Assembly: GCA_964016885.1 (NCBI GenBank)
Contig: OZ024740.1
Span: 439,022,001 to 439,086,000 of the forward strand
From: Eledone cirrhosa
Lineage: Eukaryota
Reading direction: 5' to 3'
Length of the DNA stretch: 64,000 nucleotides
The notes under the pieces: model-generated
What the model was told of the DNA's origin: nothing
The model's input: only the letters and a program-made list of their open reading frames with translations
Databases searched by the model: none
Position numbers and translations under genes: made by a program
Shown: one piece after another, positions 1,933 to 60,176 of the stretch
Numbering within the stretch: the first letter of the stretch is position 1
How the letters are laid out: each line of letters starts with the position of its first letter

Positions 1933-1935
1933 AGG

Positions 1936-3032
1936 TTGTCTCACCTTTCACCTGTTATCTCACCTCTCTCACCTGTTGTCTCACCTCTCTCACCTGTTGT
2001 CTCACCTCTCTCACCTGTTGTCTCACCTCTCTCACCTGTTGTCTCACCTCTCTCACCTGTTATCTCACCTCTCTCTATGTTATCTCACCTCTCTCACCTG
2101 TTATCTCACCTCTCTCTATGTTATCTCACCTGTCTCACCTGTTATCTCACCTGTCTCATCTGTTATCTCACCTCTCTCACCTGTTGTCTCACCTCTCTCA
2201 CCTGTTGTCTCACCTCTCTCACCTGTTATCTCACCTCTCTCTATGTTATCTCACCTCTCTCACCTGTTATCTCACCTCTCTCTATGTTATCTCACCTGTC
2301 TCACCTGTTATCTCACCTGTCTCATCTGTTATCTCACCTCTCTCACCTGTTATCTCACCTCTCCCTATGTTATCTCGCCTGTCTCACCTGTTATCTCACC
2401 TGTCTCACCTGTTGTCTCACCTCTCACCTGTTATCTCACCTGTCTCACCTGTTGTCTCACCTCTCACCTGTTATCTCACCTCTCTCTATGTTATATCACC
2501 TCTCTCACCTGTTATCTCACCTCTCACCTGTTATCTCACCTCTCTCACCTGGTATCACACCTCTCTCTATGTTATCTCACCTCTCTCTATGTTATCTCAC
2601 CTCACCCTATGTTATCTCACCTTTCTATGTTATCTCACCTCTCTCTATGTTATCTCACCTCTCTCACCTGTTATCTCACCTCTCACCTGTTATCTCATCT
2701 CACCCTATGTTATCTCACCTCTCTCTATGTTATCTCACCACTCTCACTTGTTATCTCACCTCTCTCTATGTTATCTCACACCTCACACCTGTTATTTCAC
2801 CTCTCTCACCCTATGTTATCTCACCTCTCTCTATGCTATCTCACCTCTCCCTATATTATCTCACCTCTCTCTATGTTATCTCACCTCTCCCTATATTATC
2901 TCTCCTCTTTCACCTGTTATCTCACCTTCACCTGTTATCTCACGTCTCTCACCTGTTATCTCACCTTTCAACTGTTATCTCACGTCTCTCACCTGTTATC
3001 TCACCTTTCACCTGTTATCTCACCTCTCTCTA
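1936..3032. repeat. Minisatellite, ~19-21 bp units (tcacctgttatctcacctctc / tatgttatctcacctctctc)
   Basis: About 1.1 kb tandem array. The three long ORFs across it (LSHLSHL / VISPLSP / CYLTSLT) are just the repeat read in three frames. Confidence 0.97.
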
Positions 3033-5457: not shown

Positions 5458-5729
5458 GAAGAAGAAGAAGAAGAAGAGAGAGTGAGAGAGAGAGAGAGAG
5501 GAAGAGTGAGAGGCATATATATCTCGAGAGAGTAAAGAGAGAGTGAGTAAGAGAGGAGGAAAGGGTTGCGTAAGTGATTGGGAGAAATAATGACTTAAAG
5601 GAAAAGAGAGAGAGATATATTAATAATAATAATAATAATAATTGTTTCTACTTTAGGCACAAGGCCAGCAATTAGCAAGTACCAGTAATGCACTGGGTTA
5701 TTGCTGGCCTTGTGCCTAAAGTAGAAACA

Positions 5730-5774
<45 letters not shown>

Positions 5775-5967: not shown

Positions 5968-5968
<1 letters not shown>
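5458..5968. repeat. ~500 bp imperfect palindrome centred on a SINE 3' tail
   Basis: 5458-5672 is the reverse complement of ~5700-5968, including unique sequence (gggttgcgtaagtgattgggagaaataatgac / gtcattatttctcccaatcacttacgcaaccc). Confidence 0.92.
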
Positions 5969-6024
<56 letters not shown>

Positions 6025-6025
<1 letters not shown>

Positions 6026-6210
6026 TGTTTCTACTTTTCGCACAAGGCCAGCAATTACCCAGTGCATTACTGGTACTTTATTTTATCGACCCCGTAAGGA
6101 TGAAAGGCAAAGTCAACCTCGGCGGGATTTGAACTCAGATCGTAAAGGGACGTAACTATGCTGGAAAGCATGGCGTCCGACCCTCTACCGATACTGCCAA
6201 TCCACCGCCC
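6025..6210 (-). mobile_element. tRNA-derived SINE with (ATT)n tail, inserted in a (TAA)n tract
   Basis: Minus strand: A-box-like tggcagtatcggtagag, B-box-like gagttcaaatccc, core gcctttcatccttacggggtcgataaaataaagtaccagt, tail ggccttgtgcgaaaagtagaaaca(att)n. Matches 59971-60137. (AAT)n lies on both flanks. Confidence 0.85.
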
Positions 6211-14400: not shown

Positions 14401-15878
14401 TTGACCATTATGCTGCGAAAAGTGAGAGCAGGATACAAGTTGGGAAGGGGAGAGCTTACCATCAATCACCTCCTCTTCATGGACGATCTTAAGCTCTTCG
14501 GGAAAAGTGAGAAGGAGTTGGATGTGCTTGTTGACACTGTCCGTATTTTCAGCAGTGATATATGTATGCAGTTTGGTATTGGTAAATGTGGAGTCATTGT
14601 GATGAGGAGAGGTAGGTTGAGCAGAAGTAACGGGATCCAGATACCAACAGGTGAGATGATAAAGGAAATTGACTCTGAGGAAGGATACAAGTATTTGGGC
14701 GTTCTGGAGGCTGATGGCATAAAGAACAAAAAAATGAAGGAATTGTTAAGAACTGAATACATTCGGAGAGTAAGGAGCGTATTGAAGTCACATCTGAACA
14801 GCAGAAATGCCATAAGCGCAGTAAATTCCCGAGCTGTGTCTATTATTAGGTGCAGTGCGGGAATTCTGAGATGGAATGTTGCTGAACAAAAAGAAATGGA
14901 TAGGAAGACTAGGAAGCTATTGACTATCTACAACATGTTCCACAAGAGGAGTGATGTCGATAGACTCTACCTAAGGAGATCTGAGGGTGGAAGGGGTCTT
15001 ATCAGCATAGAGGACTGTGTTCAGATGGAGAAAAGCAACCTTCATGAAAAATCCCTTCATAGTACCTTCTTTGAGAAAATTGAATTTAGTGATCCACAGA
15101 CATGGAACTGATTAAAAAGAGGAGACCTTAAAAAGACTACAGAAGGAATGATAATGGCTGCGCAAGAGCAGGCACTCAAAACGAAGTGGGTGAAACACCA
15201 TATTTACAAGGAGCAGGCTAGCCCACTGTGTAGGATCTGTGGAGAGAGAGGAGACTGTGGCTCATATTGTATCCGAGTGTAAAAGCCTAGCCCAGGCTCA
15301 CTATAAAGGCTTGAGACATGATGTGATGGGCAGGGTGATCCACTGGCACCTATGCAAAGTAAACAATTTACCACATTCTGAGAAGTGGTGTGAGCATAAG
15401 CCAGAGGCGGTGATAGAAAACGATAAGGTGAAGGTGCTATGGGATTTTAGGATACAGACGGATAAGAAACTGGAACACAATAGGCCTGACCTGGTGGTTT
15501 TGGACAACAAGGAAAAAAGATCGTGCCTGATTGTAGATGTAGCCTGCCCATTTGACACGAGAGTGCAAGAAAAGGAGAGGGAGAAAATTAACTCATACCA
15601 GGACTTAAAGTGGGAGGTACAAAGGATTTGGAACTGCTATGAAGTCAAGTGGTCCCGATTGTCATAGGCGCACTAGGTACTATTTCAAAGAGTCTCTAAG
15701 GATGGTTAAAGAAAATTAGTCCAGCCCCTCTTTTTGGAACACTTCGAAAGGCATGCTTGCTGGGAACAGCAAGAACCCTCCGATATGTCCTGAATATCTG
15801 AGGCTGCAGGTAGCGGCTTGATATTCATTTCAACAAACTTTCCAGTTAAATAACATCAATGACTGAGACTCCAAGAAC

Positions 15879-15905
<27 letters not shown>
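11459..15905 (+). mobile_element. Family A copy A3, full-length leader; ORF 12523-15800 disrupted (in-frame ~114 bp deletion near 15030, stop at 15109-15111, later frameshifts)
   Basis: The 862 aa ORF is almost identical to A1 up to ~15030; a more diverged C-terminus, 3' UTR and (AAT)n follow. Confidence 0.93.
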
Positions 15906-15909
<4 letters not shown>

Positions 15910-16155
15910 TCTTTATTAACCACAAGGGTTTACATAAAGTAGACATTAAGGACAGTGCAGGACAATGCAGGACGGTACAAATGGGAATTTCTGCGTGTAA
16001 AAAACAAAAACAGAGGATATAACAAAAAATAACAATGAAAAATTCCCTAATAGGGGGGAGACTTCGGAGGGACATTTGTGGAGAAAGCCCAGTAAAAAGC
16101 CACAATGACCCTGACCACCAAGGCAAGTGCCCTCTCCCAGTTTTCCACCTTTAAT

Positions 16156-19100
16156 TTACAGATATATGCTCAGAGTAGGCCCATTCACTCGGGCCATTCT
16201 TGCTTCTCTCACCCATCTTTCAACAAAATGCTGGGAAGAGAGCACTTCCCTCTCTACTCTGATTTTCCTTTTCAAATGAAATTTGAAAAAGTCAATCAGA
16301 GCATCACCGAAGAGGTAAGTGCTCGTCTTCAGCCCTTTCAAACGTGTCCACCATACTATCTCTTTCGCCATGGCCACCAGACAGATAAAAACTGCCTGCC
16401 CTTCCAGGCTAAAGGAGGAGGGCGGGGCAATCCTCACGATGGAGTCAGATGATAGCCGGATCCGTCCTAAACGCGACAGCAGGTGTTCGACATAAACCCA
16501 CAAGTCAGCAATTTTCGGACACTGGACGAGTGCGTGCAGGACGGTTTCGTCGCCCTGCGCGCATCTCGGACATGCCCGGCTAACGGCACCTCCATGCCTG
16601 TAGAGTTTATCCCGAACTGGCAAGGCTCCTCGGTAGCACTGCCAGGCCAGAGATTTCTGGAAGTTGTCCATAGGCCCTGGCCCGAAAGTTCTTCCGAAGA
16701 GATTGGCTAGTTGATTTTCGTCGAGTAGAACGCCGAGGTGGAGTTTCCACCGATCACATTGCCCGATTGGTCGAGGTCTGTGAGCGCCTGAAGACATTCC
16801 AGTCTCCAGGCGCTCCCTCTCGGTCTTCGCTTGACCCAGGACTGCAGCTCCGTCAAGGAAACGAGCTGGGGAAATACGTGTCGAGCAAACTGCGACCACA
16901 CCTGAACACCGTCGAGGAAGAGGTGGAGATGTCGTAGCCTGAGCGCGTGCCTGCGCATCATCAGCCACGGCATGCCCAGCCCTCCACGTAGCGGGTGTTG
17001 ACAACAGATGGACCGCCTGACCATCGGAGCACGTCCCTTCCACAAAAAGCGAAAGATCAAACGCTCCAGCGCAGTCAGGCGAGGCTTAGGACAAGGTACG
17101 ACGGTCAGGCGGTAGCAGATGACAGACGCGATGTACGCGTTAGCCACCTCCGCTCGACCTTTCAGGGATAGCTTCCTCTCCGCCCATTTCTGGGTGAGAG
17201 AAGCCACCCTGCTCGTCACCTCGTCCCAGTTTTTCTCCGTCTGGAGGTCCGGACCGAACCAGACCCCTAGCAATTTAACCGGTCCGTCCGTCCAGCGTCC
17301 GACGACGCTGTTGGACGGCATGGACCTGCCTCTCCAGGTGCCGAGCTGCAGGCCCACTGACTTTTCCTGGTTGATCATTGCTCCTGTCACCGCTTCGTAT
17401 TCTCTTAGTGTAGTGCCGATCGCCTCGATGTGTTTGGCGTTCGACACCACTACGGTGACATCGTCCGCATATGCTCACACGGATCTTCCGCATTCTAGTT
17501 CGCGCGGGACTCCCCTCAACGTCTCCAGTTTGTGCAGTAATGGCTCGAGAGTCAATACGTACAGGAGGGACGAGAGGGGACATCCTTGGCGGACCGAGCG
17601 CATGATGTTGAACGGTTCCGACAGGTGACCGTTCACTCTCACCGCAGAGCAGATGTCGCTGTGCATGGCAGCGATCCAGCCTCTGAAGACGGGCCCAAAG
17701 CCAGCCTCCCTCAGGACTGCCGCTAGGTAACGATGGTCGACCCTATCGAAAGTTTTCGACTGATCTAAATTGATCAAGGACCCACCCGTGCCAGGTTCCT
17801 TAGCTACCCTCTCTATGATGTATCGCATGAGGTGGAGGTTGTCGTGGATGGATCTGTCGGGAATGGCGCATGTCTGCGCCTCTCCCACCAGACCACCAAC
17901 GACAAGCGCCAACCTCTTTGCTAGCACCTTGGCCAAAATCTTGAACTCTGTGTTTAGCAGAGTTATGGACCGGAAATTATCTATGTTATCCCCCTTGTTC
18001 GGATCCTTTCTCAGCAGTGCCACCGCTCCTCGGCTCACAGAACTGGGAATTCTACCGTTCTGTTGCCAGTTGCAGTAGACGTCCGCCAAGAGGCCTCCGA
18101 ACAAGTCTGGCATCTGTACGTAAAGTTCATAGGGCAGACCATCCAAACCAGGCGATTTACCCCTTGTGCAGCCAGTCATTGCCTCCCTTACTTCAGCGGT
18201 TGTTATCGGCTTTTCGCAACACCTCGCCTCAGTGGCCGAGAGCCGCGGCAGTCCGTCGAGGTAGACACTAAAGTCCATACCTCTACCCGGCCCACCGCTG
18301 CCCCCGAACAGCTGAGCGAAGTGTCGCTGAAAAGCTTCACACATTTGCCCGGGATCGAGTAGCATGCGCCCGTCGTGGTCCACCAAAGACCGGATCGTGG
18401 CTTTGTTGCCACGACGCGCCTCCGCCACTCGGCCCCATTGAACGGTTTTCGTCCCCTCGTGTCTGAGAGCACGCACCCTTTCTCTGACAACGCAGCCTTC
18501 GTGCTTTGCATTGAAGAATTGGTCAAGGGCCAATTTCGCCGCAAGCACGTCGGTCGCAATGCCTTTGCTAAGCGCCTCGTCTAATTTTCTAACTAGTTCT
18601 CCCTCTGCTCTATTTTTCTCTATTGCTAAAGCCTTACTAAACCTAATCGATTCTATTCTAATCGCTCTCTTCAGAGCAAACCACCACTTGTTGTTGACGA
18701 TGGCCCCCGTCAACGCCCGCTTAGCTAGTTCGCTAATCCGGTCTCTGTAGGCCTTGGCGCTGGTAAGGACGCGTTTAGCTTCCAGTAGCCGGGTCCTCGT
18801 CTATGAAGCCTATCTAAGTCAAGCACACAGATCACGAATTTGTGGTCCGTGTAGCTGACTATCTTGAATTGTGGACAGCCTATGCTAGACCTATCTATTT
18901 CCCTACAAAATACTCTATCGAGATATGATCTGGATGACCCTATGCGATTTGTCCAAGTCCACATTGGCACATTCGGGAAATCCAATCGGTACCTGTCAGA
19001 CAGTTCAAAACGCCTGAGCAGGTTGGTGAGGCTCTTGCACCCTCCACCCCTATCCGCTAATCCCACACAGTCCCAGCGTGCATCTAAGATCCCGTTCCAG

Positions 19101-19522
19101 TCGCCCACTAACACTAAAGAGCGGGACGTTCCAAGAAAGGTCTCCAGACGCCGGAAGAAATCAGGCCGCCCGGCTCCTGTCGGGGCATAGACGGCCACTA
19201 GCCTGAAAGCTTGCCCTTCTCCGCTGGTCACGTCCAGCACCACCAGCTTACCCTCTGGGTCCAGGAAGATGGCCCGTATGGCGAGATCCAAACCTCTCCG
19301 AAAAAGCACAGCAGCTCCTCCACCCGATCCAGGACGGCTGGGAGATGCGTACACATCGTAGCCGCCGAAGATCGGTGCGAAGGCCCGTGCTTCGGAGATT
19401 CTGGTCTCGCTGATGGCCACTACATCTATGTTTAGTGACCTGAGGTCGTTGAGCAGGTGACCCTGCTTCCATGACGACCCCAAGCCACGCGCATTTATGC
19501 TGCCTATTCTGAGTGAGGTCAT
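16156..19522 (-). pseudogene. T1 ORF2: AP-endonuclease + RT + C-terminal Cys/His motif, frameshifted, with a ~55 bp deletion near 16725
   Basis: SINARGL, ISET, VYAP, GDWN, SYLDRVF, YTDH, YWKLN (APE); KSPGLDGLP, ITLLNTEFKILAK, LDQSK.FDRV, VRQGCPLS, LLGV (RT); CPRC..ETVLHALVQC. Confidence 0.92.
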
Positions 19523-19557
19523 GTTTAAAATAGAGTGGAAAAGATGGGAAAGACCAC

Positions 19558-21645
19558 TTACCGTACTTTTGGTAGAGGAGGGATGGTTTTTACATCCCTT
19601 TTCACTTGATCGTCTGGTGAAGGGACCGTTGAATCGTCCCTTCGGCTGGTCGTCGGCTCTTCTAACAGAATGCCTGAATATACTCTTCGATTGATGGTTC
19701 CTCCTAGGTCCCTGAAATCACCAACTGCGTTGGGGAATTTCGTTTTAATGTTTGTGTATTGTTTCTGTGCTATTTTTAGCAGTCTTATGTTAGTTGGCGT
19801 TTTGATTGGTGCTGGTATTATGTAGTCCTGTTGTGAAATGTCTGTGTGTTCAATTATGTAAGTCATTAGTTTCTTGTTGTTTGTATTTATTGCCGTGCAT
19901 TTGTTTTTCTGGGGGTGAGGTGTGGTTCTGCTATTTTCTTGTCGTTGTTGCTGGGTGTGTGTGTTTTGTTGTTGTGTTTGCGATGTTGGTGCTTGTAGTG
20001 GTGGTGTTGAAGGTGTTGTTGGCGGTGGGGTTGTCGCCGGTTGTGATGGTGGTGCTAGTGTGGGTGGTGATGGTGTTGGTGGTGTTGCTGCTGTGGGTCT
20101 CTTTGCAGTAGACTTTACCCTTTTCTCATTTCTTTCCTCCCTTTTCAAAGGCGACGATGCGCTGCTTCTGCGTTTGTGCCTTCTTACGACCTTTTGCCAT
20201 CCCTCTCCCACCTCACACTCCATGTCTGATTCTGTGAGGTCGGGGAGGGGTACCAGCTCCACTCTTTCACGTGTTGTTGTTGGTGATGTTTGCACTGGAG
20301 TCTCTGTTGCAGCTGCATTTGGTATTGCTGTTGTTGTTGTTAATATTTCCACTGCTGCTGCTGTTTTTGATTTCCGTGGCGTGGGTATGGGTGCCACGGA
20401 CCTATCGTTCCTGGTTGCCGCTTGTCCTGTTGCTGGTAGCCGTGGAGCCGGATTCGGAAGGAGGGGGGTTTTCTCCTTTCTCGGAGTCTTCTCGTTGCAG
20501 AAGGCCCTGAGGTGTGTCTTCGATCCACAGCGAAAGCATTTCGGGCGTTTGCCCTCAACACTTATGGGCAGTTGAGTGCCGTTATCGAAGTCTATCACAT
20601 CCGGAAGAGCTTCGATACACTCCTGGTTGGTTTGGATTAGCATCTCAATGGAGGTGCCGACCCAATCTTCTCTTACTTTTTTCTGTACTTGCAGTACAGT
20701 TGTTTTGTCCTCGATTCCGACGAGGACAGACGCGGCCAGCCAAGAAGGGGCCATTCCGGGGGGGACGTGGGTCAGTTTGACCCTCACAATTTTTTGCCCG
20801 CAGTAGGAGGGCACCAACACCATTTCCTCGCTCCTTAGGGTCACTACGGATTGGGCCTTTGCCTCCTGGGGTGTGGCAAAAAGTACGTCTACGGTGGCAT
20901 ATGTTTTGCCTCGGGTGATGTGCGTTTTCCGCTACCACACAGACCCCAAGGCTTTTTGTATTTGGGCCTCTGTGGCTCTTTCCACCCTACTGGATTTTGT
21001 ACTTACTGTACGGTACGTGACCGTACAGTGCTCTTGGGTTTCGAAAAATTTTTCCGCTGCCTTGCAGATTGCTCGGTGTCCATTCTTTGTCACCATCTTC
21101 TTCGCTTCCTCTAACTCCTCATTTGTTATGAGGATTGTTTCCAAGTTTTTCGCAATACCTGCAAATGAGATTGGTTTTTCTTTGCTGCTGTTGTTGTCGT
21201 CAGAGCTTTTGTTGTTGCTGCAGGTACTACGACTACTGCCTTCGCCGCTGTTGCTGTGGTTGTTGTTGGTGTTGCTGCTGCTAATGCTGTTGTTGTTTAT
21301 GCTCCTGGTGATGCTGTTGCGGCTGCTACTGTTGTTTTCATTGTCACTGTTGCTGTTGTTATTACGGCTGCTACTGCTATTATTCCTGACGTCAGACGAA
21401 TGAACTGGGTTTTCGTATTTCCCGCACACCTGTTTTGTCGCTGTCGTCGTCGTCGTGGAGAAACCTTGCACGCTTTGCACGAGACTTTTCTTTTCTTTCG
21501 TCGCTTGCGAAAGAGAAGGGAGGGAGAGGGACACATTTAAAGAAGGGAGGGAGAGAGACAATCTTCTCTCTGCTGTAGTGATGATTGAGGAAGAAGAAGA
21601 CGGAATGAATGGGAGTGACCTATGCAAATTCTTTTTCGTAGCCAT
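19558..21645 (-). pseudogene. T1 ORF1: gag-like nucleic-acid-binding protein with CCHC knuckle, frameshift near 20935
   Basis: CFRCGSKTHLRAFC; SFAGIAK motif; Pro/Thr-rich linker; lies directly upstream of ORF2. Confidence 0.85.
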
Positions 21646-22125
21646 GTTGACTTTTTTGTTAAAATAAATATTGGGTACAAAACCCCAATAAGCAGTTATT
21701 TAACCCCGAAGGGCCAAATAACGGGCAGAAAGAGCCCTCTCACGAGGAAGAGGGTGTTTGTGTCTACAAGTTAGTCTAAGTTTTAAACAATTTACAATTG
21801 TTAAAGCGTTCAAAATTTACAGTACCTTACAGAGCCGAGCCTCCGTCAACCATAGCATTCAATAATAATAATAATAATAATGTTTTCTTTATTAACCACA
21901 AGGGTTTACATAAAGTAGACATTAAGGACAGTACAGGACAATACAGGACGGTACAAATGGGCATTTCTGCGTGTAAAAAAAACAGAGGGTGAAATAAAAT
22001 AACAAAGAAAAATTCCCCAATAGGGGGGAGACTTCCGAGGGACATTTGTGGAGAAAGCCCATTAAAAGACCACAGTGGCCCTGACCACCAGGGCAAGTGC
22101 CCTCTCCCAGTTTTCCACCTTTAAT

Positions 22126-25100
22126 TTACAGACACATACTCAGAGAAGGCCCATTCATTCGGGCCATACTTGCTTCTCTCACCCATCTTTCAACAAAATG
22201 TTGGGAAGAGAGCACTTCCCTCTCTACCCTGATTTTCCTTTTCAGATGAAATTTGAAAAAGTTAATCAGGGCATCACCGAAGAGGTAAGTGCTCGTCTTC
22301 AGCCCTTTCAAACGTGTCCACCATACTATCTCTTTCGCCATGGCCACCAGACAGATAAAAACTGCCTGCCCTTCCGGGCTAAAGGAGGAGGGCGGGGCAA
22401 TCCTCACGATGGACTCAGCTGATAGCTGGATCCGTCCTACACGTGACAGCAGGTGTTCGACATAAACCCACAAGTCAGCAATGCTCGGACACTGGACGAG
22501 TGCGTGCAGGACGGTTTCGTCGCCCTGTGCGCATTTCGGACATGCCCGGCTGACGGCACCTCCATGCCTGTAAAGTTTATCCCGAATTGGCAAAGCACCC
22601 CGATAGCACTGCCAGGCCAGGGATTTCTGGAAGTTGTCCATAGGCCCCGGCCCGAAAGTCCTTCCGAAGAGATTGGCTAGTTGATTTTCGTCGACGCCTA
22701 GAGTTTCTCTAAGTACGTCGTCGCTCTTCCCCTCCACTAATCCCCTATAGAACGCCAAGGTGGAGTTTCCACCGATCACATTGCCCGATTGGTCGAGGGC
22801 TGTGAGCGCCTGAAGACATTCCAGTCTCCAAGCGCTCCCTCTCGGTCTTCGCTTGACCCAGGACTGCAGCTCCGTCAAGGAGACGAGCTGGGGAAAAACG
22901 TGTCCAGCAAACGGCGACCACACCTGATCACCGTCGAGGAAGAGGTGGAGATGTCGTAGCCTGAGCGCGTGTCTGCGCATCATTAGCCACGGCATGCCCA
23001 GCCCTCCACGTAGCGGGTGTTGACAGCAGATGGACCGCCTGACCATCGGAGCGCGTCCCTTCCACAAGAAGCGAAAGAGCAAACGCTCCAGCGCAGACAG
23101 GCGGGGCTTAGGACAAGGTACGACGGTCAGGCGGTAGTAGATGACGGACGCGATGTACGCGTTAGCCACCTCCGCTCGACCTTTCAGGGATAGCTTCCTC
23201 TCGGCCCATTTCTGGGTGAGAGAAGGCACCCTGCTCGTCACCTCGTCCCAGTTTTTCTCCGTCTGGAGGTCTGGACCGAACCAGACCCCTAGCAATTTAA
23301 CCGGTCCGTCCGTCCAGCGCCCGACGACGCTGTTGGACGCCATGGACCTGCCTCTCCAGGTGCCGAGCTGCAGGCCCACTGACTTTTCCTGGTTGATCAT
23401 TGCTCCTGTCACCGCTTCGTATTCTCTTAGTGTAGTGCCGATCGCCTCGATGTGTTTGGCGTTCGACACCACTACGGTGACATCGTCGGCATATGCTGAC
23501 ACGGATCTTCCGCATCCTAGTTCGCGCGGGATCCCCCTCAACGTTTCCAGTTTGTGCAGTAATGGCTCGAGAGTCAATACGTACAATAGGGACAAGAGGG
23601 GACATCCTTGGCGGACCGAGCGCATGATGTTGAACGGTTCCGAAAGGTGACCGTTCACTCTCACTAAAGAGCAGATGTTTCTGTGCATGGCAGCGATCCA
23701 GCCTCTGAAGAAGGGCCCAAAGCCAGCCGCCCCCAGGACTGCCTCTAGGTAACGATGGTCGACCCTATCGAAGGCTTTCGACTGATCTAAATTGATCAAA
23801 GACCCACCCGTGCCAGGTTCCCTAGCTACCCTCTCTACGATGTATCGCATGAGGTGGAGGTTGTCGTGGATGGATCTGTCGGGAATGGCGCATGTCTGTG
23901 CCTCTCCCACCAGACCACCAACGACAAGCGCCAACCTCTTTGCTAGCACCTTGGCCAAAATCTTGAACTCTGTGTTTAGCAGAGTTATGGGCCTAAAATT
24001 ATCTATGTTATCCCCCTTGTTCGGATCCTTTCTCAGCAGCGCCACCGCTCCTCGGCTCACAGAGCTGGGAATTCTCCCGTTCTGTTGCCAGTTGCAGTAG
24101 ACGTCCGCCAAGAGGCCTCCGAACAAGTTTGGCATTTGTACGTAAAGTTCATAGGGCAGACCATCCAAACCAGGCGATTTACCCCTTGTGCAACTAGTCA
24201 TTGCATCCCGTACTTCAGCGGTTGTTATCGGCTTTTCGCAACACCTCGCCTCAGTGGCCGAAAGCCGCGGCAGTCCGTCGAGGTAGACACTAAAGTTCAT
24301 CCCTCGATCCGGCCCGCCACTGCCCCCGAACAGTTGAGCGAAGTGTCGCTGAAAAGCTTCACACATTTGCCCGGGATCGAGTAGCATGCGCCCGTCGTGG
24401 TCCACCTAAGACCGGATCGTGGCTTTGTTGCCACGACGCGCCTCCGCCACTCGGGCCCATTGAATGGCTTTCGTCCCCTCGTGTCTGAGAGCACGCACCC
24501 TAGCTCTGACAACGCAGCCTTCGTGCTTTGCATTGAAGAATTGGTCAAGGGCCAATTTCGCCGCAAGTACGTCGGTCGCGAAGCCTTTGCTAAGCGCCTC
24601 ACCTAATTTTCTAACTAGTTCTCCCTCTGCTCTATTTTTCTCTATTGCTAAAGTCTTACTAAACCTAATGGACTCTATTCTAATTGCTCTTTTCAGAGCA
24701 AACCACCACTTGTTATTGACGATGGCAACCGTCAACGCCCGCTTAACTAGTTCGCTAATCCGGTCTCTGTAGGCCTTGCGCGCTGGTAAGGACGCGTTTA
24801 GCTTCCAGTAGCCGGGTCCTCGCCTATGAAGCCTATCTAAGTCAAGCACACAGATCACGAATTTGTGGTCCGTGTAGCTGACTATCTTGAATTGTAGACA
24901 GCCTATGCTAGACCTATCTATTTCCCTACAAAATACTCTATCTAGATATGATCTGGATGACCTATGCGATTTGTCCAAGTCCACATTGGTACATTCGGGA
25001 AATCCATTCGGTACCTGTCAGACAGTTCAAAACGTCTGAGAAGGTTGGTGAGACTCTTGCACCCTCCTTCCCTATCCACTAATCCCACACAATCCCAGCG

Positions 25101-25544
25101 TGCATCTAAGTTCCCGTTCCAGTCGCCCACTAACACTAAAGAGTGGGACGTTCCAAGAAAGGTCTCCAGACGCCGGAAGAAATCAGGCCGCCCTGCTCCT
25201 GTCGGGGCATAGACGGCCACTAACCTGAAAGCTTGCCCGTCTCCGCTGGTCACGTCCAGCACCACCAACTTACCTTCTGGGTCCAGGAAGATGGCCCGTA
25301 TGGCGAGATCCAAACCTCTCCGAAAAAGCACAGCAACTCCTCCCCCCGATCCCTGACGGCTGGGAGATGCGTACACATCGTAGCCGCCGAAGATCGGTGC
25401 GAAAGCCTATGCTTCGGAGATTCTGGTCTCGCTGATGGCCACTACATCTATGTTTAGTGACCTGAGGTCGTTGAGCAGGTGGCCCTGCTTCCATGACGAC
25501 CCCAAGCCACGCGCATTTATGCTGCCTATTCTGAGTGAGGTCAT
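22126..25544 (-). pseudogene. T2 ORF2: APE + RT, frameshift near 24960 and stop at 24406-24408
   Basis: 759 aa segment with FRPITLLN, LDQSKAFDRV, VRQGCPL, AYADDV, CPKC..HALVQC; upstream APE pieces match T1. Confidence 0.92.
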
Positions 25545-25578
25545 GTTGAAAAGAAGTGGAAAAGATGGGAAAGACCAC

Positions 25579-27572
25579 TTACCTTACTTCTCGTAGGGGA
25601 AGGACGGTTTTTCCATCCTTTTCACTGCTTGTGGCCTCCTCAGGAAGGATGTCCTTATAAATCCTCCTGGAGAGTGCTTGTCGGAAGTCTCCGATGTCTT
25701 TGGGGAACTTTTGTTTTAGTGTCATGTACGTTTTCTGTGTGATGCGAGTGATTTGTATGTGTGGAGGTGGTGTGAATTTTGGGGTTGTTGTGTAGTCTTT
25801 TTCTGTGATGCTGGTGTTGTGTTGGATGTAGAGTAATAATTGCTTGTTGTTCAAATTTAGTGCTGTGTAGTGTGTATCGTTTTGGTTGTTTTGTTTTGTT
25901 TGCGTTTGTTGTGGGTTTGATTCTGTTTCGCATTTTGGTGACTTTTGTGGTGTAGGTGATGGTGGTGTTGGAGTTAATGATGGTGATGGTGTTGGTGTTT
26001 GGGTTGATGGGGTTGGTGATGCTGGTGTGGATGGTGGCATATCTGTCCTAACTTTTTTGTTTCTTAGTTTATTTGTTTCCCTCTGTATTTTGTTTTTGGA
26101 GGGGGAAGGAAGAGAATTTTTTCTTTTTTGGTTTCTTTTTTTTTTCCGGATATCGTTTCCCACTCCTCGTCATCACAATCTGTCTCCAGTTGTGATAGGC
26201 CGGGGAGTGGAAAATCCTCCACAGGCGTTAGTTTTGGTTGTGGCGTGGTGTATCGTGTAGGCGCTGGTGCTACTTCTGAAGCGTTGGGTGGTGGTGGTGT
26301 TGGTTTTGCTGGTGGTGGTGGTGGTTTTGGTTTTGCTACTGTTGCTGGGGTTGTTGCTGTTATAGTTGCTTCTGTTGTTGCTGCTACAGTTGTTGCTGCC
26401 ATCTCTGCTACTGGTGGTGTTGATGGTTGTGTCACTGGGGTGGGTAGGAGAGGTGGCCTCAACCTTTTAGCCTGAGGGCAGAAAGCCCTTAGGTGGGTTC
26501 CTTCACCACAAACGACACACCTAGGTCTTCTGCCCTCGACAATTACCGTGAGGTGGCTGCCGTCAGTGAGGTCTATTACCTCTGGGATCTCCTCAATGCT
26601 TTTTTGGTCCGCTTGGATCAGGAGCTCCATCCCAGATCCGGACCAGTTCTCCTGCTTTTCTTTTGCTATTGCTATTATTTTTGTGTTGGCTTCGATGCCG
26701 GCGAGGACGGCCGCTATTAGCCAGGGAATTTCGATGGCCGGTGGAACGTGGGTCACCCTGATCTTTACGAGTCTCTGGCCACAATAGCTTGGGACGAGTG
26801 TGAAGTCGTCACTTCTTAATGGGGCCATGGAGTGTTCTCTAGCCTCCTCTGGTGTTTCAAAGAACACGTCCACGGTTCCATACTTCTGCCCACTTCTGAT
26901 GTGGGTTTTTCTTGCCCACAAATGTCCCAAAGCTTTTTGGATTTGGGACTTGGATGCCCGTTCCACTCGGCGCGATTTTACATTTATTGTTCGATACGAC
27001 ACGGTGCATAGGCGCCGATGCTCCATTTTATTAGGTGGGGGGGGGGCTGACCCTGTACCCATCTTTCTTTACCATTTGTTTGGTATTTTCTAAATCCTCC
27101 TGAGTTACCGTAAATGCTTCGAACTGTTTTGCTACTCTGGCGAAACTGAGGGTGGTTTTTATAATGTCATTGTTGTTGTTGTTGTTGCTATCGTTATTTG
27201 TGTTAATATTAATTTTAGTTTCAGTTGTGGTGGTGGTGACGTCAGTCGTCTTTGGTGGGGAAGAGTCCATTTTGCTTGATTTCATTTCGACATCACGAGT
27301 TAATTTATTTTTTCTTCTTTTGTTTCTGTTGTCGCGGTGGTGGTGGGGGTGGTGGTTGTCGCGGTGGTGGTGGGGGTGGAGGCTTTAACACCTGCAGTCA
27401 TTGGTAATGGCGGGAAATGAATGTCTGCCTGAGACAAATTTAAAATATTGCTACTGCTTATATTTTTTGTCGTGTTGGCAAACGTAGTAACATTTACAAT
27501 GGTGGTGTCGGTGTGAGGTGGTAATTTGGGAGGAAGGCTTTCAGCTGCTTGGTGCAGAGGTGAATTAGCCAT
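25579..27572 (-). pseudogene. T2 ORF1: gag-like CCHC protein, fragmented
   Basis: CVVCGEGTHLRAFC; LVPSYCGQ and SFARVAK homologous to T1 ORF1 but clearly diverged. Pieces 27572-27300, 27285-27031, 27062-26064, 26163-25579. Confidence 0.82.
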
Positions 27573-27807
27573 TTTTTTTCAAAGAAATTTTTTGATAATA
27601 ATAAAGGTTTAAATTTTGGGCACAAGGCCCCAATCTTTTTGGGTGTCCTTTTCGGAAAACAATGTATGTGCGCTTATATATGGTTAACAATAACAACTTT
27701 CCATAAATGGCAATTTTTAACAAACGGAATTAACAAACCTTTGCGGAGCTCACGATGATACGATTTACTATGTAGGTCGCCAATAATAATAATAATAATA
27801 ATAATAA

Positions 27808-29510
<1,703 letters not shown>

Positions 29511-29527
29511 AAGAAGAAGAAGAAGAA

Positions 29528-34479
<4,952 letters not shown>

Positions 34480-34487
34480 AAGAAGAA

Positions 34488-38805
<4,318 letters not shown>

Positions 38806-39127
38806 AGAGATGGGGGAGAGCGTTTATCTATTTAAGTGGTGGTAGGACTAAAGAATAAATAATTTCTCCCCCCCCCACACACACACACACATTCCGTGAT
38901 GGTGTTCTTTCCATTTCTAAATATATCACAACCAACTAATGGATTACGCTACTGCATGTTACAACTTTTTTTATTTTAATTTCATAATTATAAAAGGTAA
39001 CCTATTTAATAGCAATTATGAACTATGTAAATTGTCACCGATCTACAAATAATTTTGATACACACACACATGCACATACAACCCCACGATATATGTGTGT
39101 GTATATATATATATACATATATATAAC

Positions 39128-58689: not shown

Positions 58690-59090
58690 GCATAAAATAA
58701 AGTACCAATAATGCACTGGAATAATTGCTGGCCTTGTGCCAAAAGTAGAAACAATTATTACAGGCTAAAGTAGAAGTATCTGGAACATGTAAGATGTTTT
58801 ATGTGTTAAACTATGGAAAGGATATATATAGACTTAGATGCACGAAATCAAAATATAAAGGGGTGAGCAAAACCAGAAGGTTCTCTAAACAATTGGTGAG
58901 TTCTCACCTGTGTATCGGTGAATAATCCGAAATGTTTTTATCTGTATTTTCCCCTTGTAACATGTATTACATTTTCTTCGTTGTTATTTATTTGCTATGT
59001 ATTATTCGCCGAGGTTAAAATAATGTACCAGTAGTACACTGGGATAATTGCTGGACTTGTGCCAAAGTAGAAGTAGAAACAATTATTAAT
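58690..59090 (+). mobile_element. Two 3' fragments of the main SINE (58694-58760, ~59010-59088)
   Basis: aaaataaagtacca..atgcactgg.ataattgctggccttgtgccaaaagtagaaacaattatta, and a variant of it. Confidence 0.8.
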
Positions 59091-59195: not shown

Positions 59196-59735
59196 TGAGG
59201 TGGCGAATTGGCAGTCGTTAGAACGTCGGATAGAATGGCAGAGTCGTTAGAACGGCAGATAGAATGGCAGAGTCGTTAGAACGTCGGATAGAATGGCAGA
59301 GTCGTTAGAACGTCGGATAGAATGGCAGAGTCGTTAGAACGGCAGATAGAATGGCAGAGTCGTTAGAACGTCGGATAGAATGGCAGAGTCGTTAGAACGG
59401 CAGATAGAATGGCAGAGTCGTTAGAACGTCGGATAGAATGGCAGAGTCGTTAGAACGTCGGATAGAATGGCAGAGTCGTTAGAACGGCAGATAGAATGGC
59501 AGAGTCGTTAGAACGTCGGATAGAATGGCAGAGTCGTTAGAACGGCAGATAGAATGGCAGAGTCGTTAGAACGGCAGATAGAATGGCAGAGTCGTTAGAA
59601 CGGCAGATAGAATATTTTGCAGCATTCGTTTCAACTCTCTGCTATCTGAGTTCAAATCCCGCGAAGATCAACTTTGCCTTTCATCCTTTCGAGGTCGTTA
59701 AAATAAATGAACCAGTCAAGTACTAGGGTGGATGT
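59196..59735 (+). mobile_element. SINE whose tRNA-like head is amplified into a tandem array
   Basis: ggtggcgaattggcag..., array, then gagttcaaatccc (B box) and tttgcctttcatcctttcgaggtcg core. Confidence 0.8.
59209..59612 (+). repeat. 14 x 29 bp tandem repeat tggcagagtcgttagaacg(tcg/gca)gatagaa
   Basis: Counted directly; two unit variants; first unit 2 nt shorter. Confidence 0.97.
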
Positions 59736-59970
59736 TTTCCTCTATATCTTTCTCATTTCCATTCTCTCATTCTTTATCCTTCTCTGGAAGAAATCTGTTG
59801 TATTCAGACTTGGAGATGAGATTGGCTCCACCGGGTTTTAAAAATGCCCTAGAAACGCTGTATGTCAATATGGCGCCCCTTGGACTCCTCGGCAGTAATG
59901 GAACCATGTATGTATATGCATAGACGAAACTGAATATAAATGCTCTCAGTGTCTAAATAATGAACAGTTA

Positions 59971-60137
59971 TTGGCAGAATCGGTAGAGCGTCGGACAATA
60001 CGCTTTGTAGCATGTAGTTACGGCCCATTACATTCTGAGTTCAAATCCCAGCTGCCTTTCATCCTTACGGTGTCGATAAAATAAAGTACCAGTGATGCAC
60101 TGGAATAATTGCTGGCCTTGTGCCAAAAGTTGAAACA
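59971..60137 (+). mobile_element. SINE of the main family; its (ATT)n tail is shared with the 3' end of A6
   Basis: ttggcagaatcggtagagc, gagttcaaatccc, core and tail as in 6025-6210. Confidence 0.85.

Positions 60138-60176
<39 letters not shown>

Follow-up and report, generated by a model that had tools for sequence, protein, structure and literature searches.

A CTTGT-loop hairpin, A-rich spacer and (ATT)n tail at the 3′ ends of a SINE and of L1/Tx1-like LINEs, its likely partners, in Eledone cirrhosa

The window analysed here is a 64,000-nucleotide stretch of the genome of Eledone cirrhosa (assembly GCA_964016885.1, contig OZ024740.1, positions 439,022,001 to 439,086,000 of the forward strand). 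It holds long and short interspersed elements (LINEs and SINEs) set in a TAA/ATT microsatellite: two full-length LINEs named T1 and T2, Dong-like elements of two kinds (A and B), and complete and truncated copies of one SINE (Table 1). LINEs of the group of T1 and T2 are called T-type below. Because the SINE has the same hairpin, A-rich spacer, (ATT)n tail and ATT-repeat insertion sites as the T-type LINEs, it is likely copied by them; a probability of about 65% is given to its mobilisation by these L1/Tx1-like LINEs as a non-autonomous passenger. As parasitism this would be of an ordinary sort, although the LINE group involved is an unusual one.

Table 1. Positions of the elements and 3′ modules in the window (position 1 is its first letter).
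Feature	Position	Strand	Description
T1, full-length T-type LINE	15906..21860	-	3′ end of type I; Exo_endo_phos, RVT_1, zf-RVT by Pfam
T1 3′ module	15906..15930	-	Hairpin AACC-CTTGT-GGTT 15918-15930; 12-nt spacer AATAAAGAACTC 15906-15917
T2, full-length T-type LINE	21882..27781	-	3′ end of type I; Exo_endo_phos, RVT_1, zf-RVT by Pfam
T2 3′ module	21882..21906	-	AACC-CTTGT-GGTT 21906-21894; AATAAAGAAAAC 21893-21882; then (ATT)7
SINE copy	59962..60137	+	Hairpin TGGC-CTTGT-GCCA 60113-60125; spacer AAAGTTGAAACA 60126-60137
5′-truncated SINE copy (last 62 nt)	58692..58759	+	TGGC-CTTGT-GCCA 58729-58741; spacer AAAGTAGAAACA; then ATTATT
SINE copy	6026..6201	-	Tail runs into (TAA)19 at 5968-6025; polarity as T1/T2
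Two truncated SINE tails, inverted	5634..5738	- (5643-5674), + (5677-5729)	Each followed by ATT repeats
SINE-tail-like motif in T2 leader	27597..27633	-	ATTG-GGGC-CTTGT-GCCC + AAAATTTAAACC + TTTATTATTAT; ~150-187 nt from T2 5′ end
3′ end of Dong-like A element	15700..15878	+	RVT_1 only; ends ...CATCAATGACTGAGACTCCAAGAAC, then (AAT)n
3′ end of B element	29294..29383	+	...AAGATAAATGCAATTG, then (TAA)33; no in-register CTTGT hairpin

T1 and T2 have two open reading frames (ORFs), with an apurinic/apyrimidinic endonuclease, a reverse transcriptase and a C-terminal zinc knuckle, an architecture that fits the Tx1 clade and is also common to the L1 clade. The nearest solved structure to the T-type protein was human L1 ORF2p (E 3.8e-42), with R2 far behind (9e-21), and an automatic cluster name read 'Transposon TX1 uncharacterized 149 kDa protein family' (score 0.97). 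The best named relatives of T2 ORF2 were cephalopod proteins, from Argonauta hians (68%) and Acanthosepion pharaonis. The initial annotation, made from the letters of the window, had named these elements Tx1. The domains and the one cluster name agree with that name; placement in the Tx1 clade is only a lead, and 'L1/Tx1-like' is what the data support.

T1 begins with GAATGCTATGGTTGACGG at its 5′ end and is flanked by (ATT)n on either side, (ATT)9 at 15879-15905 following directly after the spacer in the minus-strand sense. The 3′ ends of T1 and T2 were 92% identical over 252 nt and their 5′ leaders were unrelated (GAATGCTATGG... vs GGCGACCTAC...); both leader types were found again behind (ATT)n at other genome sites. 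The hairpin, 12-nt spacer and (ATT)n strings first read in T1, T2 and two SINE tails were recovered in all four. Genome-wide searches were run over the 3.0-Gb genome. The T1 3′ end gave at least 574 first-look matches, and the 40 that were scored were 93-100% identical to it. A search with the zinc knuckle (zf-RVT, PF13966) gave 44,775 first-look candidates, 150 of which were scored; all 70 loci taken from these 150 matched T2 ORF2 (tblastn; longest hit 52-92% identity), which makes T1 and T2 members of a LINE group that is both very large and diverse.

Searched by regular expression, at least 49 of these 70 loci carried a CTTGT-loop hairpin, AATAAA... and (ATT)n as far beyond the ORF as expected. 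The DNA sampled to that point contained 85 LINE-type ends, 43 of them distinct. Their stems were sorted into AACC/GGTT (35 copies; type I, the type of T1 and T2), GGCC/GGCT (15 copies; type II), GGCC/GGCC (8 copies; type III) and AGCC/GGCC (11 copies; type IV), with two copies of GGCC/GGTT, to which no type was given, and 14 singletons. All sampled lineages present a 3-4-bp stem around an invariant CTTGT loop, a 12-13-nt A-rich spacer and (ATT)n. Each T-type spacer begins with AATAAA, 6-7 nt before the ATT tail (e.g. at 15906-15917 and in loci L062-L131), a string that resembles a polyadenylation signal; the SINE spacer is without it.

In the alignment of the 43 distinct ends the two inner stem pairs were C-G throughout. 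The second pair was GC in 23, AU in 13, GU in 4 and other in 3 ends, and the outer pair AU in 14, GC in 13, GU in 9 and other in 7. Stem cells were paired in 90.7% of cases against 84.9% in shuffles, none of 500 shuffles reaching the observed value, and pairing fell to 46-47% when the partner was slid by one column in either direction. Between lineages the two outer of the four pairs change on both sides (AACC/GGTT, GGCC/GGCC, GGCC/GGCT). These paired changes, few of them independent, support a real small helix in the LINE ends. The hairpin was contained in the minimum-energy fold of 5 of 7 LINE and SINE ends of 54-64 nt, whose folding energies did not stand out clearly from those of shuffles. 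An extended outer helix (TTTA/TAAA, or the tail with upstream UAAU) was also considered; it appeared in some folds of types I and IV and of one SINE, was not formed in types II and III, and was rejected.

The SINE is short (~176-190 nt), non-coding, present in high copy number and flanked by target-site duplications. At least 3,683 first-look genome matches were obtained, at ~83-86% identity to the window copy. Among 73 tails the stem was TGGC/GCCA in 33, TGGC/GCCT, with T.T at the outer position, in 26, and a singleton in 14. Since the outermost T-A pair is present in only 33 tails, the conserved SINE stem is the 3-bp GGC/GCC. The initial annotation had the stems of LINE and SINE differing in sequence while still pairing; the paired changes across LINE lineages agree with this, and the outer SINE pair does so in those 33 tails only. 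The spacer AAAGTAGAAACA was found in 36 of the 73 tails, and the tail is very uniform.

A longer form of the SINE carries a ~30-nt insert before the tail and often ends ...GCCTATATAAGAAACC or ...GAAATC. Two independent SINE families with only the tail in common were considered and rejected, as the second form is the first plus this insert, i.e. a subfamily. A further subfamily with the tail GCCAATAAAAGAAACC (the L141 form) was likewise dismissed: the tail gave one exact match, and is therefore a chance variant, with 80 matches at one mismatch, of two kinds (GCCTATAAAAG and GCCAATATAAG). At 58.7 kb, a LINE hidden upstream of the SINE tail was ruled out. The 201 nt upstream have one genome match, themselves, and the copy is therefore a 5′-truncated SINE. 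ARAGORN detected no tRNA in the window, nor in 6 further SINE-bearing loci, and Rfam gave no tRNA match for two SINE regions with E allowed up to 1; a tRNA-derived head was therefore not confirmed, and the box-like motifs, compared by eye with the general consensus, are presumptive only.

Some further observations were made on single SINE copies. One copy (locus L140, ~508-550) has a LINE-type spacer, AATAAATGAAATC, behind a SINE-type stem, from which no conclusion was drawn. Close to this copy, at ~798-1316 of the same locus, lies a tandem repeat with a ~259-nt unit, each unit ending GCAGGCCTTGTGCCTATATA + poly(A). The two head-to-head SINE tails at 5634-5738 form a long palindrome that gave weak matches, below threshold, with several microRNA precursor models of Rfam (best 27.6 bits, cut-off 52.5).

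Likeness of the SINE tail to LINE ends was measured with a position matrix derived from the 43 distinct LINE ends, anchored at the tail, and 200,000 shuffles. The four SINE tails of the window were reached by only 3, 25, 76 and 101 shuffles, in keeping with the 3′ module that the initial annotation had described as common to the SINE and the T-type LINEs. On the same matrix two Dong-like A ends were at chance (97,570 and 175,896 of the shuffles). A covariance model was built from LINE ends only and the window was scanned without filters. T2 scored 67.2 bits and T1 65.1 bits; the SINE tails came next, with 22.6 and 21.1 bits for the inverted pair at 5634..5738 and 19.7 bits for the copy at 59962..60137 (E 0.08-0.33, rough values). 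The E-values are no lower because only ~20 bits are in common, part of them from the ATT repeat.

Alignments placed the closest LINE ends outside T1 and T2. When the terminal 60 nt of each of three SINE copies were aligned locally, the scores with types III and IV were reached by 4-105 of 2000 shuffles and those with type II by 47-159. In global alignment of a tail of the longer subfamily (L051), 0 of 5000 shuffles reached the score of types II, III or IV, and 57 of 5000 that of type I. From loop to tail, this copy and a type IV copy (L082) were identical in 20 of 23 columns. The alignment sets CCTTGT-GCC.A.. of the SINE against CCTTGTGGCCAATA... of the LINE, and the SINE stem looks like a GGCC-type LINE stem from which one C-G pair has been removed symmetrically. 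Type I, the type of T1 and T2 themselves, proved the weakest match among the LINE lineages, and the closer ends, of types II-IV, still belong to the T group. The partner lineages are probably types II-IV rather than T1/T2. Copies of the SINE had a median pairwise identity of 0.874; the corresponding value was 0.84 in type III and 0.95-0.96 in types I, II and IV. These values allow overlapping SINE and LINE activity in a LINE sample biased to intact copies.

The same figures bear on chance or convergence, by which A/T-rich ends beside one microsatellite would have come to have a 7-mer and a small stem in common without function. Stems of only 3-4 bp, weak fold z-scores and covariance-model E-values of ~0.1-5 would fit such an origin. 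It would leave unexplained, however, that shuffles so seldom reach the SINE tails (3-101 of 200,000; 0 of 5000) while three other LINE ends at the same repeat stay at chance, that LINE lineages with 52-92% protein identity all keep one and the same loop, and that stem letters change in pairs. Chance was judged quite improbable.

Insertion sites were compared next to the tails. The 5′ ends of 18 of 19 full-length T-type copies, of both leader types, lay directly behind (ATT)n, as did all 10 of the T1-type copies, and T-type 3′ ends are followed by (ATT)n. This is target-specific insertion, which is typical of the Tx1 clade and not universal in it. In 39 of 70 full-length SINE copies a direct repeat of at least 9 nt was found from the first tail base, and 37 of these 39 begin ATTAT; the first ATT units are therefore part of the duplicated target. 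Twenty-one of the direct repeats extend past pure (ATT)n, as against 2.2 on average, and never more than 8, in a mismatched-flank control. ATTATT was present within 20 nt of the 5′ junction in 53 of the 70 copies. Judged by these junctions, the SINE inserts both at ATTATT sites and into longer ATT repeats, always in the orientation that the LINE also has. The SINE copy at 6026-6201 (minus strand) adjoins (TAA)19 as the initial annotation had noted, with the polarity of T1 and T2.

A census was made of what lies upstream of (ATT)n (n at least 3) in 435 kb, most of which had been chosen for carrying these LINEs and SINEs. It returned 87 T-type LINE ends, 56 SINE tails and 90 other ends. By eye, ~20 of the 90 were mutated LINE or SINE tails, and the remainder were mostly single.

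The Dong-like elements occupy the same microsatellite from the other side. The target of Dong is (TAA)n. In sense the A elements are followed by (AAT)n, so that their polarity is opposite to that of T1, T2 and the SINE; the A and B 3′ ends are without the hairpin, as first described. In global alignment the score of the B 3′ end with the SINE tail was reached by 1001 of 5000 shuffles. Mobilisation of the SINE by A or B elements would be in line with their abundance in the window and their use of this repeat, and is very improbable: their sense strand is (TAA)n, the complement of the SINE (ATT)n, and their 3′ ends are at chance against both the LINE matrix and the SINE tail. The SINE at 59962..60137 has its (ATT)13 repeat (60138-60176) in common with a Dong-like A element that ends there on the minus strand with its 3′ end, and the repeat could be the tail of either. 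At this site the earlier proposal that the SINE seeds landing pads for Dong is neither supported nor contradicted.

A motif resembling the SINE tail was located within the T2-type leader. The T2-type 5′ untranslated region (UTR; 27596-27781) starts GGCGACCTAC directly behind (ATT)n, and the motif agreed with a SINE tail at 34 of 41 alignment columns. With the ATT part taken out, 23 of 29 columns agreed, a score that 0 of 20,000 shuffles reached. Its outer stem pair is G-C, against T-A in the SINE. The module includes TTATTATTAT and sits just upstream of the ORF1 ATG. Leader and ORF1 were colinear in each of 8 other copies and in all 40 scored genome matches of 1,858 candidates. Stand-alone copies of the 186-nt leader were looked for among these and dropped as a candidate, since all 40 continue into ORF1, in a ranking that favours long matches and so does not establish absence. 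The likeliest course of events would be that an ATT array held a short element with a SINE-type tail ahead of a LINE, which took it over as a new leader. Through the motif the SINE-type tail is physically linked with the T group, which by itself is no proof of mobilisation.

While other clades were sought, a second group of (ATT)n-tailed LINEs in sense polarity was found (loci L146-L150, L182, L183 and L187), here called R. Its members have Exo_endo_phos or Exo_endo_phos_2 and RVT_1 and lack a zinc knuckle, and their ORF2 is 945 or 957 amino acids long; a CR1-like identity is given by lead. The 3′ end consists of GTGC-ACCTGA-GCAC, 16 nt and (ATT)5-6, a hairpin unlike that of the T-type. Intact ORFs are present in many of the copies, which are 98% identical in DNA. 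In the 957-amino-acid form an internal second copy of the element's own 3′ module lies ~130 nt upstream of the real end. In two further CR1-like families the ORF is closely followed by (AAATG)n or (CAT)n repeats.

If the R enzyme needed only an (AUU)n tail, R could mobilise the SINE, and the likeness to T-type ends would be a leftover or chance. The R 3′ end is likewise a hairpin with (ATT)5-6 in sense polarity, R copies resemble many SINE copies in their short tails and unique flanks and often have intact ORFs, and one SINE copy (L045) stands directly behind an R 3′ end. Set against this, the R end was at chance with the SINE tail (local alignment 1168-1272 of 2000 shuffles, global 2647 of 5000), and both the SINE subfamilies and the LINE 5′ UTR motif have retained the tail module, which recognition of the tail alone would not require. 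Mobilisation by R was considered unlikely.

The partner might also be a LINE outside the sample: an RTE-clade element, an extinct lineage, or a T-type lineage with the exact SINE-type tail, which would still belong to the T group. RTE-clade elements have been reported active in octopus (PMC9115989, PMC13282606), with a 3′ UTR that is mostly microsatellite (PMC9115989), and only 70 of the 44,775 candidate T-type sites were inspected. The microsatellite unit of RTE-2_OV was not found in the text of PMC9115989 or in 8 of its supplementary files. No RTE occurred among the top 150 RVT_1 or Exo_endo_phos_2 genome matches, and no other LINE clade among 181 reading frames of at least 180 amino acids in the DNA sampled. 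As to a better match in another LINE clade, a point raised by the initial annotation, the CR1-like R ends were compared and were at chance, RTE ends lying outside the comparison. An unsampled partner would have to be squared with in-register likeness to T-type ends beyond that of shuffles, with the target and polarity in common, and with a census that returned no third recurrent family next to (ATT)n, though in DNA mostly chosen for these elements. It was likewise considered unlikely.

Mobilisation by T-type LINEs is the preferred explanation, and several results weigh against it. The common stretch is short, and identity to T1 and T2 themselves amounts mainly to the 7-mer CCTTGTG plus AGAAA; local alignment with type I was at chance for two of the three SINE copies. 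Covariance-model E-values of the SINE tails were only 0.08-5 in 128 kb. The SINE-type stem occurred in no sampled LINE: the pattern GGCCTTGTGCCAATAAA gave 14 matches, all of them SINE copies, by which a LINE lineage combining a SINE-type stem with a LINE-type spacer was also rejected as a candidate. With T.T at the outer position of 26 of 73 SINE tails, the fourth pair is confined to one subfamily, and type IV LINE ends (11 copies) have an A.C mismatch at that pair. Independent covariation events in the LINE stem are few because the lineages are related and single copies decay neutrally. The hairpin is weak, with fold z-scores of +0.48 to -2.14 against shuffles, and was out of the minimum-energy fold in 2 of 7 sequences. 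The tails of the SINE, with a median of 2 repeats (n=98), are also shorter than those of the LINEs, with 6 (n=35). To these are added the existence of R, a lineage sample of 70 from 44,775 candidate T-type sites that is biased to high-scoring, intact copies, and a set of LINE ends compared with the SINE that was limited to T types I-IV, R, A and B.

A mechanism may be proposed on this basis. The T-type ORF2p would bind the CUUGU hairpin or its loop, and the (AUU)n 3′ end would pair with the nicked AAT target strand, from which target-primed reverse transcription could start. SINE RNA would take the same route and compete for the T-type LINE machinery. That the hairpin is the feature recognised is possible, at odds somewhat short of even. 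A wider account can be drawn from the sequences, in which an animal superfamily of the L1/Tx1 group with tens of thousands of copies would be a stringent, strand-specific microsatellite LINE; the CUUGU hairpin with (AUU)n would be its loading signal, copied by the SINE; one LINE lineage would carry a SINE-type signal in its 5′ leader; and the TAA/ATT niche would be split by strand with Dong-like elements, three kinds of element making and re-using each other's landing pads. Taken whole, this account is tentative and rather unlikely to hold in every part.

Other repeats of the window were recorded alongside these elements. The (AAT)n/(TAA)n tails of A and B run straight into (AAG)n of 10-19 units at 27782-27839, 29384-29537, 34363-34492 and 38700-38806, and no element boundary explains the AAG part of these four tracts. 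Satellite-like arrays were found at 1935-3030 (21-nt unit, ~54 copies; GTTATCTCACCTCTCTCACCT) and at 59213-59613 (29-nt unit, ~14 copies, 95% match).

SINEs make up ~12% of an octopus genome and are mostly listed as 'unclassified', with no partner named in the account given there (PMC13282606). No paper was found that names the partner LINE of octopus SINEs, or an (ATT)n-specific L1/Tx1-like LINE, in a search outside which Repbase Reports and subscription journals lay. A likely partner with a recognisable 3′ signal would let annotators classify octopus-type SINEs and would add an animal case to the few stringent SINE/LINE pairs of the L1 group. The signal is compact and testable as RNA, since it comprises no more than a loop of 5 nt, a stem of 3-4 bp and a tail of triplets. 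The pairing would also help to explain the growth of TAA/ATT repeats into nested LINE/SINE arrays in this genome, where two LINE clades and a SINE use one microsatellite on opposite strands.

Among known systems the eel pair UnaL2/UnaSINE1, reportedly described by Kajikawa and Okada in 2002 as a stringent pair in which SINE and LINE have the 3′ stem-loop and the terminal repeats in common, is similar in that the SINE tail resembles the LINE 3′ end, with a small hairpin, a conserved loop and terminal tandem repeats able to pair with the target. The present case differs in that the common stretch is short (~26-30 nt, 70-85% identical at best) and known from sequence alone, and in that the LINE is of the L1/Tx1 group rather than L2, CR1 or RTE. 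Stringent pairs of the L1 clade are on record for LINE1-1_ZM with maize and sorghum SINEs and for Chlamydomonas L1-1_CR with SINEX-3_CR, and 3 of 58 SINE/LINE pairs in that 2012 survey had L1 tails (Ohshima 2012, PMC3472496). They resemble the present elements in an L1-superfamily 3′ hairpin whose loop is conserved, in stem changes that are compensatory there and may be so here, and in a SINE with the same end; they come from plants and algae and have poly(A) ends, whereas the host here is an animal, the end is (ATT)n and the targets are ATT repeats (PMC3472496). The crocodilian SINEU was assigned to Tx1-Mar by a target preference in common and similar activity times (Kojima 2015, PMC4494074). 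There too the link was argued from a common target, which is a Mariner transposon and not a microsatellite, and SINEU-1 is described as without significant likeness to any Repbase LINE, whereas here both target and 3′ module are in common (PMC4494074). A Tx1-SINE pairing, which the initial annotation had called uncommon, is thus uncommon and has precedents in SINEU/Tx1-Mar (PMC4494074) and the L1-clade pairs (PMC3472496). Microsatellite-specific LINEs of the Tx1 clade include Kibi at (TC)n, Koshi at (TTC)n and crocodilian (TTCC)n families, beside which R4-clade Dong is named (PMC4494074). As far as these two sources go, 3′ stem-loop SINE/LINE pairs, stringent L1-clade pairs, a Tx1-dependent SINE and microsatellite-specific Tx1 and R4 LINEs were all known already (PMC3472496, PMC4494074). 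Like Kibi, Koshi, the (TTCC)n families and Dong, the T-type LINEs insert into a simple repeat in fixed orientation, giving head-to-tail and nested arrays; unlike the Dong-like A and B elements of the same window, they use the opposite TAA/ATT strand and also short ATTATT sites outside long repeats.

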